From a candidate division WOR-3 bacterium (lineage in GTDB: Bacteria; Hydrothermota; Tepidihabitantia; Tepidihabitantales; Tepidihabitantaceae): a stretch of DNA of 30,177 nt. The translations under genes were made by a program, and so were the position numbers. Location: positions 21,504 through 51,680 of the forward strand of contig JBDRUH010000005.1 in NCBI GenBank assembly GCA_039801225.1. The letters are read 5' to 3'. This document shows, in pieces, positions 3,638 through 26,496 of the stretch (the first letter of the stretch is position 1; each line of letters begins with the position of its first letter). The notes below the pieces were generated by a model. That model worked only from the letters and a program-made list of their open reading frames with translations. It did not search any database and was not told the DNA's origin.

Positions 3638-4675
3638 TTAACCAGAGACCTCAACCGTGCCGGGAGGACCTTCTATTACTTCACCGATTATCGGTGCGAT
3701 GAGCCCGGCATCACTTGCCCGCTTTTGATACTCTTTTGCTCTTTCCGGGTTTAATGCAATCAATAGCCCGCCCGAGCTCTCCGACTCAAAGAGCAGGTTC
3801 TTTAATTCTGGCGAAACCGACCTCCGCCATTCCACCCATTTGCCAAATGAGTCTTCATTCATCAATACCCCGGGGTCAACAAGGGTCTTTGCCAGTTCGC
3901 GCACTTTGGGTAAAAGGGGTATTTTCTCAGCATACAATCGGATTCGGACACCAGAGGCTTGTGCCATTTCTTGAGTGTGCCCCAAAAGTCCAAAACCGGT
4001 AATGTCAGTAGCCGACGAGGCGAAACAGGCAAGCATTATCTCTGCTGCGAGGCGATTTAACTGCATCATTGAGGTCTCGGCAGTCTTTTTTAGTTCTTCG
4101 TCAACCTCGTCAAAGGTCATCATCGCCTGAGCAAAGACGCCGGTGCCCAGCGGTTTGGTGAGAATCAAATGGTCGCCAATCTTTGCTTTGGCGTTGGTAA
4201 TAATCCTTTTCGGGTCAATTTTGCCGGTAACCGCCAGTCCATACTTTATTTCTTTCTCGTTGAAGGTATGACCGCCCACCACCACCGCCTGCGCCTCTTT
4301 TACCGTATCCTGACCGCCGCGTAAAATTTCTTTGAGAATCGCTTTATCCAAAGGCGCAGGAAAACCTATTACATTTAATACGGTTAATGGTTCACCACCC
4401 ATCGCATAAACATCGGAAAGGGAGTTCGCCGCGGCAATCCGTCCAAAGGTGTAAGGGTCCTCAACCATTGGTGTCAGCAGGTCAACGGTCTGGACCAGTG
4501 CCAGCCCCTCGTTTAAAAGAAATACCCCGGCATCGTCAGCGGTGTTAATCCCGACTAAAAGCCTCGGGTCGGTTGTCTGCTCCAACCCGGCTAATGCCTG
4601 CGCCAACTGCGCCTTGCTGAGTTTTGATGCTCAGCCGGCACAGGTTACCGTTGCCAGTATGCCGCGTTTCGCCAT
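3638..4675 (-). CDS. selD: Selenide, water dikinase SelD, selenocysteine-containing (UGA at codon 15), 345 aa
   Basis: DDAGV, QTVD, AAANSLSDVYAMGG, VGGHT, TDITGFGLLGH and SGGLL motifs. The frame extends upstream through TGA (4633-4631) to ATG 4675: MAKRGILATVTCAG-U-ASKLSKAQL, with SD AGGAG 5 nt upstream. Confidence 0.95.
4580..4621 (-). promoter_or_regulatory. Putative bacterial SECIS element of selD
   Basis: Apical hairpin GCGC-AGUUG-GCGC (4612-4600), loop starting 22 nt after the UGA with G at loop position 2. Possible lower stem CUCAGC/GUUGGAG. Folded by eye only. Confidence 0.55.
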
Positions 4676-4683
4676 TTTTACTC

Positions 4684-6579
4684 CTAATTTTTCTCTTTAC
4701 TTCTTAGAATTCGCACTTCACCCTTGCGCTGGGTTAGACCGATCGTATCAAAGTAGTTAAGGAGCGGAATGATGAATTTTCTGGTGGTATTCAGCGCCTG
4801 CCTGATTTCTGAGGTGGATAACTCAGATTTGCTTTCAAACATTTTTTTAATAATTTCCTCGGCGGTCTTTATCGCACTAAAGTGCATCCAAACCTCATCG
4901 CCCAGGTCAATTGCCACCCCTGATTCCAAGAGGGCGGTTTTTATCCGTTCTCTTAAGTTCGGTTTGACAGTGGCAAGGAGTTCACTTGGCGAAGGAGGAC
5001 TCCACTTTGCCTGTTCCAGTGTTGAGGCTAACCGGTCAAAAGCCTCCTTCTCTATCGGCGTGAGATTCAATTGATGGCTTGCCAACCGGACCTTTTCCCC
5101 CTCGCAAACCACCTTACCTTCGTCAATAAGTGTCTTTATTATTACCTCAAACAGGGGTGCGGTGAGACCGAGTTTTGCCCGCAATTCGGCGCGCTTTATC
5201 CCGAGGCGCCAGGGGTTTTTCTGGTGAAATTCGGATAGGGTTTTCAATGTCTCTTCTTTTGCCCGGGTAAAGTTTTTTTGGTGAATTAGATACTCCTTGC
5301 CTTCCCATTCAAACTGGTGCACCTTTCCCTCTCTTAAGAGAAGGTTTACCATCATCTGGGCAGACTCCTCAGTAATCGTCAACTCCCGGGCGATACCTGG
5401 TAGCGTCCGGGTCTCAAAGCCGATTTTCAAGAGATGCTGTTCTAATACCGCACCTTTTTCGCCCGAGGCAATTTCTTTTAATCGGGCGATGGTAACGGGA
5501 TTGAACCGCCTTTCTTTAACAGCGTTAGCCTCTAAAACCACGCCGCCACCAATGGTTTGCGGTGGTGAGTAATGCCGGATAACATAACGGTCGTTCCAGT
5601 CACAGACAATCGGTTTTTCGGTGCGAATCTGAACTAACGCCTCCTCCCCCGGGGCGAGTTCTTTTTTATCAAGTAGACACACCTGGCACATAACTTCGGC
5701 GGTGCCGATATGGAGGTGGACCCGGGTCATATGCCGGAGGGAGGTGAAGGCATCCTTCAAAAGATAACAGGTGGCGTTAAAGATTTGAGTTGGACGGTAA
5801 TAGTTGGGGGTAACCAAAACGCTGCCCCTTTCCACCATTTCCGGCTCTACACCCTGGAGGTTGAAGGCTGCCCGGTCGCCAATCCCTGCCTGTTCAACCG
5901 GCTGGTTGTGCTTCTGAATGCCCCGCACCCGCACCTCAATACCTTGAGGAAGTAGTTCCAACCGGTCACCGATTCGGCAGACACCAGACAAAACCGTTCC
6001 TGCCACTATCGTGCCAAAACCTTTGATGCGAAAGGAGCGGTCAACCGGTAAACGGAAAATGCCCCGGTCCGGCTTCGGTTCTAATCGCTGGACCATTTCC
6101 TGGATAGCATTTTTTAACTCCGGGATACCCTGACCGGTGAGCGCCGAAACCATCACTATCGGCGCATTTTCTAAGAATGAACCAGCCACCAAATTCTGGA
6201 CATCCAGCCGCACCAGTTCTAACCACTCCTCATCCACCAGGTCAATTTTGTTAATCGCTATCAGCCCTTTTTTAATTCCCAGGAGCCGGCAAATCTCAAA
6301 ATGTTCCTTTGTCTGGGGCATTACCCCATCATCGGCCGCGACAACTAAGAGAACCAGATCAATGGTGCTGGCGCCGGCAAGCATATGGCGAATAAATTTC
6401 TCATGCCCCGGGACATCAATAATGGTAATGTCATCACCGAGGAAGGCGAAGCCGAGGTCGGTCGTCATTCCCCGCTCTTTTTCCTCTTTCAGTCGGTCCG
6501 GGTCGGTGCCGGTTAGCGCCTTTACTATCGCGCTTTTACCGTGGTCAATATGACCGGCGGTGCCAAGGACATAATGCAT
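4684..6579 (-). CDS. selB: Selenocysteine-specific translation elongation factor SelB
   Basis: [41 protein letters not shown]-terminal winged-helix motif [22 protein letters not shown]. Confidence 0.97.
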
Positions 6580-8000
6580 TAGAGCCTCTTTCTCCCTTCC
6601 GCGCCGGGTATGCCCAGTTCTGAGCGGTATTTGGTGACGGTCCGGCGGGAGATGTTAATCCCTTCCTCTTTCAGTTTTAAACAAATCTCCTCGTCCTTGA
6701 GCGGTTTTTGTTTGTCCTCATTTTCAATCAAGAGCCGGATTTTTTCCTTAATGCTCTCGCGGGATTTGTCACCGGTTCCCCCTTTGAAGAAATACTTCAG
6801 GGAGAATATGCCGTAATTGGTCTCAAGATATTTGCCACTGATCGCCCGTGAGACCGTTGCCGGATGGACTTTTAAGAAATCGGCCGCATCCTGGAGGGTG
6901 GTCGGCTTGAGGTGCTCTGGTCCATAAGAGAAAAAGTCCTTTTGCCTTTGCAGAATAAAGTCTACCAGCCGGCGTAACAGGTTGCGCCGGGACTCTATCG
7001 CTTTAAGGAACATCATTGCCCGACGGACCTTTTCCCGGGCAAATTCTACCTGTTCCTTAGAGAAATTTTTCGGCTGTGCCAGTATCTCTAAGAAACGCCG
7101 TGAGACCCTCAACCGCGGAATGGTCTCATCCTGGACAACCACCACCAGTTTGTCTTCCCGCCATTCCACCGAGAAGTCCGGGGTAATATAGTTAACTGCG
7201 CTGGTTGTGAACTGGCGTCCTGGTCTTGGCTCAAGGTTGAGGATTCTTTTAACCGCCTCTCTGACCTCCTCCTCACTGGCATTGCATACCTTCACCAATT
7301 TGTCCAGTTGTTTATTTTTCAGTAATTCCCAGCCCTCACGGAGCAAACGACACTCCAGCGCCTCCGGCGGGTAACCCTTCAATTCCAGTTGCGCCAAAAG
7401 CGCCTCTTTTACCCCGGAACAGCCAAAGCCCCCGGGCGGAATCTGGGAAAGGGCGGAAAGGACTCGCTTTACCCGCTCAATTTCCACCCCCAATGTTTCT
7501 GCCAGTTCCTCCGGACGAACCGTGAGGAAGCCATCTTCATTCAGCCACTCCACCACCTGTTCAGCAATTCCGGCGTCTTCAGGCAACACCTCTGCCTGGA
7601 GTCGGGGTAAAAGCGCCTCCCGAAGTGTGGCCACCGGATTCGGCGCATACTCCTCGCCCGGTAATGCTTCGTTGCTACTTAGCAGGTATTCGCCGCTGGG
7701 CACTTCCCAGGCATCTGAAGGGATAAGTTCGTTAAGGGAAAACTCTTCAGCGGTGTCAATGAGTAAACCTTCTTCGCCCTTCAATACCGGTTCCTCTTCA
7801 TTCGCGAGCGGTGATTCTACCGGTTCAGTATGGGGCGCTTCAACATTTATTTCCTCAGCCGGCTCTAACGCCGGGTTCTGTTCCAGTTCTGCTTCAATTA
7901 GTTGCTCCAGTTCTATTGTCGGTAACTGAAGGAGTTTCAGGTTTAGAATCAATTGCGGGGTGAGAATTTGTTCCTGGCGGAGGAGATGCCTCAGTTCCAT
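6579..8000 (-). CDS. rpoN: RNA polymerase sigma-54 factor
   Basis: Q/L-rich region I (LTPQLILNLKLLQLP...ELEQNPALE), HTH (VHPATVSRA), RpoN box SRRTVTKYR. Confidence 0.97.
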   Translation of the reverse strand: MELRHLLRQEQILTPQLILNLKLLQLPTIELEQLIEAELEQNPALEPAEEINVEAPHTEPVESPLANEEEPVLKGEEGLLIDTAEEFSLNELIPSDAWEVPSGEYLLSSNEALPGEEYAPNPVATLREALLPRLQAEVLPEDAGIAEQVVEWLNEDGFLTVRPEELAETLGVEIERVKRVLSALSQIPPGGFGCSGVKEALLAQLELKGYPPEALECRLLREGWELLKNKQLDKLVKVCNASEEEVREAVKRILNLEPRPGRQFTTSAVNYITPDFSVEWREDKLVVVVQDETIPRLRVSRRFLEILAQPKNFSKEQVEFAREKVRRAMMFLKAIESRRNLLRRLVDFILQRQKDFFSYGPEHLKPTTLQDAADFLKVHPATVSRAISGKYLETNYGIFSLKYFFKGGTGDKSRESIKEKIRLLIENEDKQKPLKDEEICLKLKEEGINISRRTVTKYRSELGIPGAEGRKRL

Positions 8001-8022: not shown

Positions 8023-8742
8023 TCATATCCGGAACCTCTCGCCTAAATAAACCTTCCTCGCCTGTTCGTCCTTAACCAGGTCTTCGGAGGTGCCGGAAAG
8101 AAGAATTCGGGCGTCAAACATCACATAAGCCCGGTCAGTAATCTCTAAGGTCTCCCGAACATTGTGGTCGGTAATCAGGATGCCTAAACCTTCATCTTTC
8201 AGGCGGCGAATGATGTCCTGAATTTCCGCCCGGACAATTGGGTCAACACCGGTAAAGGGTTCATCCAGGAGTAGAAAGGCGGGACGGGAGGCAAGCGCCC
8301 GAGCGATCTCCACCCGGCGCCGTTCACCCCCGGAAAGGGTTCTGGCCTTTTGATTTCTGAGGTGCTCAATATTCAGTTTTCTTAAAAGTTCTTCAACCCG
8401 CTGGGTTTGCTCCGCGCGGGAAATTCCCAACATCTCCAAGATTGCCCGGATGTTTTCCTCCACAGTAAGGCTACGAAAAACCGATGGTTCCTGAGAAAGA
8501 TAACCAATGCCGAGCCGTGCCCTTTTATAAACCGGCATTCGGGTTATGTCCATTCCGTTAAAGAGGACTTTCCCCGACTCCGGTGTAATAAAACCGGTAA
8601 TAATGTGGAAGGTGGTTGTTTTGCCCGCACCATTTGGACCTAAAAGTCCCACCACCTCTTGACGGGAGAGTTCTAAGGTAACCTCATTTACCACCCGGCG
8701 TCCCTTGTAAGATTTTACCAATCGTTCGGCAATTAACTTCAT
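8023..8742 (-). CDS. lptB: LPS export ABC transporter ATP-binding protein
   Basis: GLLGPNGAGKTT, LSGGERRRVEIARAL, LLDEPF.GVDP, ILITDHNVRETL, YLGERF. Canonical position before rpoN. Confidence 0.97.
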   Translation of the reverse strand: MKLIAERLVKSYKGRRVVNEVTLELSRQEVVGLLGPNGAGKTTTFHIITGFITPESGKVLFNGMDITRMPVYKRARLGIGYLSQEPSVFRSLTVEENIRAILEMLGISRAEQTQRVEELLRKLNIEHLRNQKARTLSGGERRRVEIARALASRPAFLLLDEPFTGVDPIVRAEIQDIIRRLKDEGLGILITDHNVRETLEITDRAYVMFDARILLSGTSEDLVKDEQARKVYLGERFRI

Positions 8743-9771
8743 CTACGGTTTTCCTGCTCTGGTCATGGCAAGTTTCAAAGAAGTAATCCCAACATCAAAC
8801 TCTGAACTCATTTGTCCGCTGGCAGGGGATGCGCGGACAAGTTTTCCTAAAATAAGGTCTCTTACTTCAATCCGTTCAATTGCACCCTCGGTGAGAATAA
8901 GCGCGATACTTTTCCCCTGAACTTCTACCGTTTCGCCCGTTTCGGTGCGATAACTTCCCTCGGCTTTGCCACAGAGGGTAACTTTTTTGACCGCGCCATT
9001 GGTGAGATGGAAAAATAGGCTGTCACCCTTGGCTTTTGAATTGGTATCTTTGACCACCGGTGCGCCCCAAGCAACCCCTGAATCGGCACCCGGGAAAAAT
9101 ATCACTGTATCGGCGCATAGGTCACTTTCCCCGGAGTGAAGGCAAACCTGCCCTTCGGCTCGTGCCATTGGCTGTTTCTGGAAATAGGAAAATCGTTGGG
9201 CAGTAACCAGAACCGAGTCTCTCTCGGTTTTACGGATAATTAACACCGGCTCGGAATCAACAACCCCAATTTGGGAATTTAAGTCGTAATAGCCCCGGCT
9301 ACCGGTAATTTCATAGTTGCCGGAGACATTTTTTATCTTTAACCCTAATGGTGCGCTGACCATTCTCGTTGAAGGGAAGAATTCAATTTCCCGGGCGTAA
9401 ATCTCTAATGACTCCTGTTTTACCACCACCTCTTTTAATGGGCGGGCGAGGAGAAGGGCTTTTTTGGCGGCAAAGTCGTAAACAACCGAGTCGGCGCTGA
9501 TCATCGCCTCAGGTGTGAAAATAAGCACCGAGTCAGTAAGTAGGGCAATGTTTTCTTTCTCGTTAAGGAGCGCCTGGCGACTGAAGAGTTCGGTGGTGGA
9601 GTCTTTTATTACTACACTGTCTTTAAACACCGTTGCCTGTCCTGAGGCGTTACGAAGAATCGCCATCTTCCGAGCATAGATTTCAGCAGCGAAACTTAAT
9701 AAAGGAGTCAAGACCAAGTAAACGACCAAAGCCCGGGGAGTGAAGAGACAGGGCTTATGGTTGGAATTCAT
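8743..9771 (-). CDS. LptA/OstA-like periplasmic beta-jellyroll protein (multi-repeat)
   Basis: Signal peptide after ATG 9771 (MNSNHKPC...PLLSFA), repeated ADS-type beta motifs, located between lptC and lptB. The start may instead be GTG 9795. Confidence 0.75.
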   Translation of the reverse strand: MNSNHKPCLFTPRALVVYLVLTPLLSFAAEIYARKMAILRNASGQATVFKDSVVIKDSTTELFSRQALLNEKENIALLTDSVLIFTPEAMISADSVVYDFAAKKALLLARPLKEVVVKQESLEIYAREIEFFPSTRMVSAPLGLKIKNVSGNYEITGSRGYYDLNSQIGVVDSEPVLIIRKTERDSVLVTAQRFSYFQKQPMARAEGQVCLHSGESDLCADTVIFFPGADSGVAWGAPVVKDTNSKAKGDSLFFHLTNGAVKKVTLCGKAEGSYRTETGETVEVQGKSIALILTEGAIERIEVRDLILGKLVRASPASGQMSSEFDVGITSLKLAMTRAGKP

Positions 9772-11166
9772 AGTCGGAGTTGCCGCGGATTTCACTTAAA
9801 ATCTCAATTTTCTTAAGTCCGGCATCGGCAATAAGCCCTTGCCCGGAAACCTTTCCTTTGACAGAGATAATTGTCACCGGCGCGTCGGTATATACCTGTT
9901 GCCGGGCGTTGTTCCACATCAGAGAGTCGGTAAGTAGAACAGTAGAATCGGCGGTCTCCACCCTGACATTGTCCCGGGCAATTAAATTTTGGGTTTTTGT
10001 CCACATAACTCCGGTAGCGGCGGTAAGGACGGCGGTAGTTGCCCCGTTTTCTTCATAGAAGACAACTCGGGGGTTTTGAACATCTATTCTACCCTCGGAC
10101 TCAAACACCGACGCCTCGGATGCCATCAGAGTATAGAGCGGTCTTCCGGTCATAGATTCATGTAGGGTGAAGTCTTTCACTACCTGGTCGGGCAGGTTTT
10201 GAAGTGATTTTTCCGGTATAGCCTCTTTGCAGGCGCTAAGGAAAAGGGACAAACAGAGGAAAAGGGCAAGACCGAGTTTTGTCTTCCGTCTGCGGTTCCT
10301 CAGTAATATCAAGAGGGACCGAAGACCGAAGACCGGGGACCGGGGACCGCCTTCCGCCTTCCGCCTTCCGCCTTCCCTCCCACCGCGGCTGTTTAATGCA
10401 CCCGCCTTTCCCCAGAATACCCATTCCTCGGGATGTTGGCGGACCAAATGGATTAGCGCTTTTAGGGCATCTGCCCCATCACCCGGAGGAAAAATCTTGA
10501 CCTTGGGTCGTCCGTTTTCTAAGTAAGAAAAGACCGGGATTGTGCTCCCTATTTGAAAGGGAAGAGATGGCAGTCGCATCGCTATTCCTTCCGCCTCTAA
10601 CCACATTTGCTTTCCTTGACTGGTGTTATCCAGAACAAAGCCGATAAGGGATGAAGGGTAACGAGAGTATGCGGCATATAGACTCCTCACATTTGTGACA
10701 ATTTTAATCCCCGGGGTTGAGGTTCGAATCGTGGAAAGGAACTTTTCTATAAGTGGACTTCGTTGCCGGGAAACAACCAATATAACCAGAGCATTTTTTG
10801 GGGCAAATATATGGGGTAAAAACTCCCAGAGTCCAAAGTGATATGAAACCATAATACGGTGTTGCGCATCGGACATTAAACACTGATTATTTTCGGCATA
10901 AATAACTGCCCTGTCAATAAGTTCAAAAACCTTTTTTGTGCCGATTCTTGCCATCAGCGTAAAATTTCTACCCAGACGCCAGGCGTTTTTTAGCCAGAAC
11001 CATTTCCGGGAGTTGCCAAAAATTAACCGGTAGTTGGCAAGAATTTCTTCCCGGTAGTCCTTTCGGATTACAAGGTAAAGAATAAGGATGGCGCGGGAGA
11101 GAAGAAGGGCGATATCAAAAGGTAGCGCCCGGAGGAGAAAAAGGGGAAAACCGAGAAGAAAATCCA

Positions 11167-11167
<1 letters not shown>
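9755..11167 (-). CDS. Fusion of an LpxL/HtrB-family acyltransferase and LptC (LPS export periplasmic protein)
   Basis: N-terminal ~255 aa with HFGLWE and RQHPEEWVFW motifs. Then a repeat-derived linker, RNRRRKTK plus hydrophobic segment plus LSAC lipobox (Cys313), then an LptC-like domain (LLTDSLMWNN...VYTDAPVTI...GQGLIAD). No in-frame stop between the two parts. Confidence 0.8.
10317..10379. repeat. Nine-unit heptamer array inside the lpxL-lptC fusion
   Basis: gaccgaa x2, gaccggg x2, gaccgcc, ttccgcc x3, ttccctc. 63 bp = 21 codons. Confidence 0.95.
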
Positions 11168-12945
<1,778 letters not shown>

Positions 12946-12946
<1 letters not shown>

Positions 12947-13062
12947 TATCCCTGACGCTGGTTGTGTTTGGGCTCCCGCTTGCAGATAATCCGCACCACC
13001 CCTTTCCGTTTCACAACCACGCAGTGAACACACCGCTTTTTTACACTGGAGCGCACCTTCAT
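12946..13062 (-). CDS. rpmJ: 50S ribosomal protein L36, zinc-ribbon (C+) form; not in ORF track
   Basis: [47 protein letters not shown], follows infA. Confidence 0.98.
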
Positions 13063-25383: not shown

Positions 25384-26468
25384 TAATCCTCCTTTTTTTG
25401 TTTTTCTCGCCCCCCTGAGACACTATAGGTTAAGCATTCTGGTTCGCTTACCGGTTGTTCTTTTCCGGCACGGCGCATAAACGCAAAGAAAAGCCCACCC
25501 AGGAGGGCAAATGCTAAGTCTAAGGCCAAGAAAAGCAGGCTCGTAGCCAGCGCCTGCTCTTTACCGAGGTGCCCGGGTAGCCAGTTTGGTGTAAAGAAGA
25601 GCACAAAAGCCGCCTCCCGGACACCAAGCCCGCCAATTGTTGGTATGTTAACCACAATATTTAACAGCGGGATAAAGATAAAATAATAGCCGAGCGGCAC
25701 CTTTGCCATAACCGCCCGGGCAGAGAAAAACCAGGCTAAAGAAAGCGCCGCCTGGACACCAATACCAGAGAGAAAACTTAAAAATAGGGCAAGGGGACGA
25801 TGCCTGTATTGTTGCACCGCCTGATAGGCCCGGGTGAGGAGTTCAGTCAGCCGGTGCAAGGGGGGGATTCTTCTATCAAGTTTGGTAAGAAGTGAACTGA
25901 GAAACCGGAATGACGCCTCATTGAGCAAAACCATGGTGAAAAGAAAAAGCAGTAAGAAGATGGCAAAAAGAAAGAGGACGACACCAAAACCGGTTAACCG
26001 ATTTCCCCCTAAACTCAAGGCATCAGCCCGTTGCATTGCCACAAAGAGCGCAGTAACCACCGCCAGAAATGAAAGACTTTCAAAACCGATAAGCCGGTCA
26101 AGAAATGTGGCGGAGAAGGCTTCGGCTCCTTTGGTCGGTTTGGTCGTATAGGCGATTCTCATCACATCACCACCAATTGATGTGGGTAAGAGTTTGCAGA
26201 AAAATAGTCCGAGGACAAAAACCCGGGCGAGATACCAGGAGGGAAAATAAAGCCCTTGGGCGGTGAGAAGAACCTGCCAGCGCCAGGCAGAAATCCAGAT
26301 AAAAAGGATATAGGCCAGTAGGGCCAGAAGAAGGAAGTGAACCTCGGCATTGCGCACCGTGGTAAAGCAGGCACCAAGTTGTTTCCGGAAAACAATACCA
26401 AGGAGTGTTAGAAGCCCGAACGATATAACCAACCTGAGTATTGAAAGCCGTCTTTCGTCTCCTGTCAT
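25383..26468 (-). CDS. Lysylphosphatidylglycerol synthase TM-domain / flippase-like membrane protein (UPF0104)
   Basis: AWRWQVLL, LPTSIGGDVMR, DRLIG, PTIGGLGVRE; polytopic. Confidence 0.88.
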   Translation of the reverse strand: MTGDERRLSILRLVISFGLLTLLGIVFRKQLGACFTTVRNAEVHFLLLALLAYILFIWISAWRWQVLLTAQGLYFPSWYLARVFVLGLFFCKLLPTSIGGDVMRIAYTTKPTKGAEAFSATFLDRLIGFESLSFLAVVTALFVAMQRADALSLGGNRLTGFGVVLFLFAIFLLLFLFTMVLLNEASFRFLSSLLTKLDRRIPPLHRLTELLTRAYQAVQQYRHRPLALFLSFLSGIGVQAALSLAWFFSARAVMAKVPLGYYFIFIPLLNIVVNIPTIGGLGVREAAFVLFFTPNWLPGHLGKEQALATSLLFLALDLAFALLGGLFFAFMRRAGKEQPVSEPECLTYSVSGGREKQKKED

Positions 26469-26496
26469 CCGTCATCCGTCTTCCGTTTTCTGTTTG
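26448..26496. repeat. Seven-unit heptamer array spanning the GT2/flippase junction
   Basis: ccgtctt tcgtctc ctgtcat ccgtcat ccgtctt ccgtttt ctgtttg. Confidence 0.9.

Follow-up and report, generated by a model that had tools for sequence, protein, structure and literature searches.

The subject of this analysis is a single gene in a stretch of 30,177 nucleotides (hereafter, the window) from a candidate division WOR-3 bacterium, contig JBDRUH010000005.1 of assembly GCA_039801225.1. On the minus strand, positions 9755..11167 encode an LpxL-like acyltransferase that runs, through an array of seven-base repeats, into LptC, a protein of the Lpt exporter. Both the listing of open reading frames (ORFs) and our own reading of the DNA give one open frame of 470 codons, with a GTG start at 11167 and no internal stops. 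Its parts, from the N-terminus to the C-terminus, are the following.

10394..11167, minus strand: acyltransferase domain of the LpxL/LpxM/PatA family (PF03279-like), codons 1–258, with an N-terminal hydrophobic anchor and the motif HFGLWE.
10313..10375, minus strand: heptamer array of nine units, 63 bp, encoding the linker E265–L285, in three sub-arrays with differing 4-nt cores.
10309..10312, minus strand: TTGA, in which the in-frame TTG (codon 286) overlaps the TGA of the +1 frame.
10229..10312, minus strand: lipoprotein-type signal sequence inside the fused frame, with RNRRRKTK as its n-region, a hydrophobic core and the lipobox LSAC, ending in Cys313.
9755..10228, minus strand: mature LptC domain (PF06835, TIGR04409), codons 314–470, and the stop codon.

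The LptC domain makes up the C-terminal 157–168 of the 470 residues. PF06835 matches residues 303–463 (77.2 bits, cut-off 21; E 1.5e-21), and TIGR04409 reaches 92 bits where its cut-off is 38. The lipobox LSAC, residues 310–313, fits the pattern [LVI][ASTVI][GAS]C, and is preceded by the hydrophobic core and, before that, by the basic RNRRRKTK. This signal sequence begins at residue 286 of the fused frame, and it is not N-terminal unless translation begins at the TTG at 10312. By our reading of the DNA, GGAG, GAGG and AGGA are absent from the approximately 20 bases upstream of that TTG; genome-wide, GGAG or GAGG stands upstream of 321 of 1044 first starts versus 126 of 1044 internal controls, the starts being mechanically called. 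The fused protein has two hydrophobic segments, at approximately residues 3–35 and 298–318, and the linker carries 12 K+R versus 2 D+E. The enzymes that lipidate and cut lipoproteins, Lgt (PF01790, 193.7 bits) and LspA (PF01252, 107.1 bits), are encoded in the genome, and LpxC was also found there. A sequence-only reading of the window had described the unbroken fused frame, the nine heptamers spanning 63 bp, the order of basic stretch, helix, LSAC and LptC, the TTG lacking a Shine–Dalgarno motif, and a coherent membrane topology; the DNA, its translation and the profile matches bear out each of these descriptions, and the peptide encoded by the array, E265–L285, matches the one that reading gave.

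The acyltransferase half scores under the curated cut-offs, with 15.1 versus 22.3 bits for PF03279 and 24 versus 248 bits for NF006270. Despite these scores, we assign it to the LpxL/LpxM/PatA (PF03279) family, because most of its homologues carry a precomputed PF03279 match, H110 and E115 of its catalytic HX4D/E motif (HFGLWE) are invariant among 25 sequences, a 25-sequence profile matches LpxM of A. baumannii (5KN7, E 9e-4) with HFGLWE aligned to HFGTWE, and the predicted fold agrees. In fact, when the AlphaFold2 model of this half (pLDDT 82.5) is compared with solved structures by Foldseek, the top matches are LpxM and PatA, with a probability of 1.00, TM scores of 0.61–0.66 and E values from 5e-08 to 2e-06.

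Read on the plus strand in the phase CGxxxxC, the array between the two halves (10313–10375) consists of GAGGGAC, two copies of CGAAGAC, two of CGGGGAC and four of CGCCTTC. Tandem Repeats Finder (TRF) splits it into 10315–10349 (5.0 copies, 85% matches) and 10347–10376 (4.3 copies, 100% matches), and by the same program perfect periodicity extends over 30 bp at most. All three reading frames are open through the array, and downstream of it the +1 frame ends at the TGA of TTGA (10309–10312), the +2 frame 24 codons into lptC. A count lower by one unit or higher by two would place the acyltransferase stop on the lptC start, which is the arrangement of the relatives described below; a count higher by one or lower by two would give a 24-codon overlap with lptC. 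The present count of nine is the sole fusing state of the three, and the earlier statement that the gain or loss of one unit uncouples LptC was correct as frame arithmetic. As for other signals, the RNA of the array has a fold energy of -41.4 kcal/mol and a z-score of -0.33 relative to shuffled sequences, which gives no support to a special hairpin. No terminator was found between the two halves in a scan of 9600–13000, and promoter-like matches in that interval were not clearly above those of shuffled sequence.

Are the two genes also joined in relatives? Both halves are present in all 40 related genomes searched (41 with the window's own). At 19 of 19 loci of family relatives, the acyltransferase gene and lptC are adjacent, in the same order and with a stop between them, as read in the junction DNA or, for L019, in the ORF listing. 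The acyltransferase stop of these relatives lies 1–20 codons beyond a conserved WGKAGA[IL], lptC is in the +2 frame relative to the acyltransferase at 17 of the 18 loci with two separate tblastn matches, and in many junctions the stop and the start overlap as ATGA, GTGA or TTGA. pyrG is upstream of the pair at all 20 loci, the window's own included (L001–L020). Comparison of these sequences shows a gene order conserved in the WOR-3 lineage: pyrG, the lpxL-like acyltransferase gene, lptC, an lptA-like gene and lptB. A scan of JGI metagenomes with LptC added six loci, from relatives 44–48% identical; in three of them the available DNA has no acyltransferase match, and the three with both genes are split. 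Two genomes that had seemed fusion candidates from an apparent long open frame, G024 and G049, both have a stop codon between the genes in their DNA.

The lipobox Cys of the window's LptC has counterparts in relatives. Among loci L002–L020, nearly all for which the LptC N-terminus is shown have a Cys closing the hydrophobic core, and for this reason the sequences suggest that a lipoprotein LptC is the norm of the lineage in the WOR-3 family relatives. At three of these loci (L003, L007 and L012) the acyltransferase–lptC junction has a heptamer array of its own, with other units, just past the overlapped start; these arrays would supply the codons for the n-region of LptC's signal peptide.

Searches with the whole protein agree with the genome comparison. 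Compared with 5.8 billion proteins, the 470 residues gave 42 matches, of which one is full-length: P0001, the representative of the window's own cluster of three member sequences, which is 470 residues long and differs from the window protein at one residue. The remaining 41 matches, 259–294 residues long, are acyltransferases without an LptC part. The closest database relative has two proteins, P0002 (271 residues, 83% identical, C-terminus NSRQRTEVG) and P0043 (183 residues, 89% identical), each from a 2513-nt contig. The N-terminus of P0043 is MTDNGRRRTELGLALF, which opens with MTDNGRRR, and the window's TTG at 10312 sits two codons upstream of the aligned P0043 start. Since ATGA, GTGA and TTGA overlaps are found in many relatives, with TTGA itself in L017, it is likely that the TTGA following the array is a relic of an ancestral NTGA stop/start overlap and that TTG 10312 is the old lptC start.

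At the level of strains, window positions 9700–11400 were compared with Logan contigs from four hot-spring runs (X1, X2, X3 and X5). A 766-nt contig of X3 covers 10115–10880 with zero differences and supports the junction as assembled. The contigs of X1 and X2 end within the array, overlapping across 10347–10369. X5, which comes from a different study, matches in four contig pieces that together differ from the window at 5 of 743 bases (~99% identity). One piece departs from the window at 10297, and its loose end, when reverse-complemented, reads as a TGA overlapping an ATG, then M-T-D, then the window's AAC CGC. This MTDN start matches the N-terminus of P0043, and the near-identical X5 strain appears, from this sequence, to carry the canonical split ATGA junction. 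No insertion or deletion in the array is listed across the four runs, as seen in contigs, which drop rare variants; X5 appears to have a different junction allele.

The array at the junction is far from alone. In this genome of 1.5 Mb and 72 contigs, TRF gives 320 rows of period 7 versus 51 of period 6 and 48 of period 8, so that period 7 is far over-represented, and the merged heptamer arrays number 331. When the 172 arrays that reach 28 bp or more are placed on the genome, 55 lie outside ORFs of at least 150 residues, 45 lie no more than 45 codons from a mechanical start, 21 are in the final 45 codons of an ORF and 51 are deeper within one. The deep internal arrays are spread over 45 ORFs. 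A Pfam scan of 40 of the 44 other than the fused frame (C72:148-1023 and three on C9 were left out) found matches in 39, mostly single genes of an ordinary kind that carry the array in frame and, for the most part, between or beside domains. The genes with in-frame arrays include those for NadB, MutS2, DnaG, MurB, HypF, PheS, the CCA-adding enzyme, NAD kinase, Rpe, IspG, Cmk and HypD. MurB and HypF have two in-frame arrays each, and the long ORFs L028, L029, L030, L036 and L052 might be further array-linked fusions.

There are 66 canonical units among the 224 arrays of at least three copies. The unit of the perfect sub-array at the junction, CCGCCTT (canonical AAGGCGG), is found at 11 loci in the genome, and AAGACCG at 6. 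Therefore, on the sequence comparison, we take the junction array to be one of the genome's generic arrays and not a dedicated linker. The most frequent recurring units are ACAGCCG (29 rows), AAAAGCC (25), AAATCCT (14) and AAGGCGG (11), and an array often consists of two or three adjoining sub-arrays. Local slippage of random sequence does not, by itself, readily account for a limited set of recurring units together with adjoining sub-arrays. A shared CpG motif was also considered; CpG is present in 111 of 224 units versus 34% of random genomic 7-mers, and it is thus enriched and not a rule.

The sequence-only reading had stated that no such fusion was described. In the literature that was searched, which was thin on subscription journals, we found no account of an LpxL–LptC fusion nor of an "internal lipobox", and to that extent the statement stands; the sequence databases, on the other hand, hold four proteins, P0121, P0157, P0161 and P0245, that carry both PF03279 and PF06835. 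Three of them came from a HMMER search of 1.84 billion representatives, where, among the 150 best matches, P0157 (588 residues), P0161 (515) and P0121 (492) have both domains, each confirmed by Pfam and in the same order as in the window. The mutual identity of these three and the window protein is 22–33%, and in the alignment of the four a hydrophobic segment is followed in every one by an invariant Cys. P0161 is from the record of a Gemmatimonadota metagenome-assembled genome (MAG), where its NCBI name is simply LptC; among 120 listed relatives of this protein, two have both domains, P0161 itself and P0245. P0121 is identical to ORF L071:2168-3646, also of a Gemmatimonadota MAG. All four database proteins are like the window protein in having PF03279 ahead of PF06835, and the three that were aligned also share the internal Cys. 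They are unlike it in their linkers, which are unrelated; by our own reading, the junction DNA of L071 is without a heptamer array. P0178 shows another partner, a KdsC-like hydrolase of the haloacid dehalogenase (HAD) family fused to LptC.

The kin of the fused Gemmatimonadota genome repeat the picture seen in the WOR-3 family. Across GTDB, 13 of 80 loci have lptC directly after the acyltransferase gene, 12 of them split and one, L071, fused. Among 30 loci from the L071 genome and its relatives, the pair occurs in eight; it is fused in the L071 genome only and split in all seven relatives. At several of the split loci the two genes already share a frame and are kept apart by one stop codon, as at 6 of the 12 GTDB loci and 4 of the 7 relatives of the fused Gemmatimonadota genome, and one mutation would therefore be enough to fuse them. 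On these comparisons, fusion at the acyltransferase–lptC junction is recurrent, yet in both cases with kin to examine it is a singleton among split relatives.

The genes around the fused frame in the window are as follows.

11167..12849, minus strand: pyrG (CTP synthase), the upstream neighbour, by Pfam and ORF.
8743..9795, minus strand: LptA/OstA-like gene, the downstream neighbour (LptD_N 5.3e-05, OstA_2 2.9e-04).
8023..8742, minus strand: lptB-like gene for an ATP-binding cassette (ABC) ATPase, by Pfam.
6579..8000: rpoN, after the lptB-like gene.

The TAG of pyrG and the GTG of the acyltransferase share one base (11165–11169). A second, composite heptamer array (11194–11259) is read through by the last approximately 30 codons of pyrG as a C-terminal tail; in relatives the pyrG tails are 15–25 residues long and are without the array seen in the window pyrG. 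Beyond rpoN, at 3638–6579, are genes for an elongation factor of the SelB type and for a SelD-like protein related to AIR synthase, which hint at the use of selenocysteine. Elsewhere in the window, an array at 26448–26486 lies across the junction of a GT2 glycosyltransferase gene and an LPG_synthase_TM (LPG-synthase-like) gene, and these two genes remain split. Its unit, ACGGATG (then A), itself holds an ATGA stop/start overlap, and the same unit is seen at the acyltransferase–lptC junction of the X5 strain.

How, then, did the acyltransferase and LptC come to share a frame? We consider it probable that repeat turnover produced the fused frame recently and by accident, at the level of the strain, and that the product is not a selected bifunctional protein. 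The comparisons suggest that a heptamer array, one of the hundreds in this genome, replaced a short segment at the junction. Being free of stops, an array of the present length sets the acyltransferase into the frame of lptC, and thus, we propose, the ribosome would read through into LptC. In the fused precursor, the N-terminal anchor would be inserted in the membrane, with the second helix, behind the basic linker, oriented N-in/C-out. In that orientation the helix would present the lipobox Cys313 to Lgt and LspA, and their cleavage would release LptC as a mature lipoprotein. An alternative or additional source of LptC may be translation that starts at TTG 10312 within the frame. We suppose that the fusion is tolerated because LptC can be released by Lgt and LspA or made from the internal TTG; for the acyltransferase, the expected result is no more than a retained basic tail and an additional membrane helix. 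As to whether cleavage by Lgt and LspA is the main route to LptC, the sequence leaves the chances roughly even.

Several points weigh against an accident tolerated in this way. The same fusion is found in at least four lineages with, as far as the sequences tell, the Cys always kept, which could reflect a recurrent selective advantage. Both cleavage at Cys313 and initiation at the TTG are predictions from sequence, and the TTG is without a Shine–Dalgarno motif, a signal that this genome does use, at a minority of its mechanically called starts. An engineered Lipo-LptC of E. coli was only partly processed, and its authors reported evidence that points to a non-functional modified form (PMC9544173). 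The split allele of X5 comes from one 186-nt contig with a depth of 3.4, whose loose end of 30 letters we reverse-complemented and read ourselves. Moreover, the comparison of strains was made from contigs alone, in which minor array-length alleles and low-level errors escape notice, and the contigs of X1 and X2 break in the array. A further proposal, less likely than not, takes up the earlier suggestion of a polyprotein split by Lgt and LspA: the 470-residue frame would be translated whole, the second helix would serve as an internal signal-anchor, Lgt would lipidate Cys313, and LspA would cut there and so free lipoprotein LptC from a membrane-bound acyltransferase. The sporadic fusions elsewhere, with the Cys present in all that were aligned, would be tolerated likewise.

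The sequence-only reading had offered, as one of three possibilities, a physical tether between lipid acylation and the Lpt exporter, that is, an LpxL–LptC fusion selected as a bifunctional protein that covalently ties late lipid A acylation to the LptB2FGC extractor. The coherent topology would suit such a protein, as would the adjacency of the acyltransferase and lptC in several phyla and the PF03279+PF06835 fusions in at least three other clusters, plus P0245. However, no fusion was found at the 19 loci of the WOR-3 family, at the three metagenome loci with both genes or at the seven loci of relatives of the fused Gemmatimonadota genome. The closest relative is split, the ~99% identical X5 contig reads as split, and the linker is a generic repeat with no conserved sequence. 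Lack of conservation was an outcome that the sequence-only reading had itself set against its proposal, and the orthologues, split at 19 of 19 loci, therefore leave a selected tether unsupported; we judge it highly improbable. The array could also serve as a slippage switch that tunes the output of LptC and the acyltransferase, another earlier suggestion: with 9 units the genes would be fused, with 8 or 11 coupled through a stop at TTGA, and with 10 or 7 overlapping, with a stop 24 codons into lptC. Mechanically this part holds, in that a 7-nt unit shifts the frame, all frames are open and the outcomes are distinct. Junction alleles do vary between samples, and heptanucleotide repeats are described as slippage-prone in PMC4679880. 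Against a switch, the array is generic, one of 331, and similar in-frame arrays lie in many housekeeping genes, where switching would be harmful. Its sub-arrays are short, with some four perfect copies in the longest and two in each of the others, and no length variant is listed in the contigs of the four runs, though contigs drop rare variants. The Lpt machinery, including LptC, is called essential in PMC8727689, so that an off-state would be costly. Altogether a switch seems unlikely.

It might also be argued that cells have no such fused frame, the true genome having a stop or another unit count that assembly or consensus has hidden. The depth is low, approximately 3–10x, in X1 and X2 the Logan contigs break off within the array, and a junction unit present at 11 loci invites mis-joins. 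Nevertheless, the assembly of the fused junction is sound, because the X3 contig spans the array and both flanks with zero differences, the array is only 63 bp long with a longest perfect run of 30 bp, and a second database sequence, P0001, has 470 residues and differs at one. We judge an artefact to be highly improbable.

With a tolerated accident of repeat turnover as the favored account, it is useful to compare the two halves with better known proteins. The acyltransferase is like LpxL/LpxM and mycobacterial PatA (5KN7/5KNK, 5F2T/5F34) in its fold, HX4E motif and N-terminal hydrophobic anchor, and it is found in a genome with LpxC. Its identity to the solved LpxM and PatA structures is 14–16%, with profile scores below the cut-offs, and it is context, namely LpxC and the lpt operon, that makes Kdo2-lipid IVA, the substrate of a true LpxL or LpxM, a possible substrate. 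Unlike LpxL and LpxM, it has no stop of its own and runs into LptC. The LptC half has the periplasmic domain of E. coli LptC (PF06835, TIGR04409), and its gene is directly upstream of the lptA-like gene and lptB. E. coli LptC is bitopic, with an N-terminal transmembrane helix, whereas the LptC of the window, and of those relatives for which the N-terminus is shown, carries a lipobox Cys; in the window strain, again unlike E. coli LptC, the signal sequence is internal to a 470-residue frame. According to Wilson and Ruiz (2022; PMC9544173), few LptC homologues are predicted lipoproteins.

The repeats of this genome also have parallels. Long heptanucleotide repeats of other bacteria, such as TAACTGA in Beggiatoaceae and cyanobacteria, are likewise abundant genome-wide, often lie near starts and at gene boundaries, and are places where assemblies break. 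The STRR repeats of cyanobacteria are comparable heptanucleotide repeats. The window genome is unlike these known cases in its many unit sequences, its many in-frame arrays and the one array that joins two genes. In bacteria, heptanucleotides are described as the commonest long simple-sequence repeats, with a link to slippage (Mrazek et al. 2007, as summarised in PMC4679880), and heptameric repeats are mentioned in PMC4692102. The junction array is like contingency loci, for example those of Haemophilus influenzae (PMC12721329), in that the length of the unit cannot be divided by three and the array lies where its copy number alters the frame. It is unlike them in lying in a core envelope gene pair and not in a surface antigen gene, and in belonging to a repeat class spread across housekeeping genes.

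On the favored account, repeats have fused two neighbouring genes of a conserved operon in one strain; the same domain fusion was already present in sequence databases. For annotation this carries a warning, as the database LpxL–LptC fusions were singletons in the two cases tested and should not be taken for a conserved architecture. For the biology of the envelope, the window strain offers a natural experiment on two points: whether a lipobox placed 285 residues deep in a membrane protein is open to processing by Lgt and LspA, and whether a lipid anchor, in place of the helix of E. coli LptC, is tolerated or even needed by LptC. More generally, 7-base repeats can remodel gene boundaries, lengthening the tails of proteins, inserting linkers in housekeeping enzymes and, in this strain, welding two operon neighbours into one frame.

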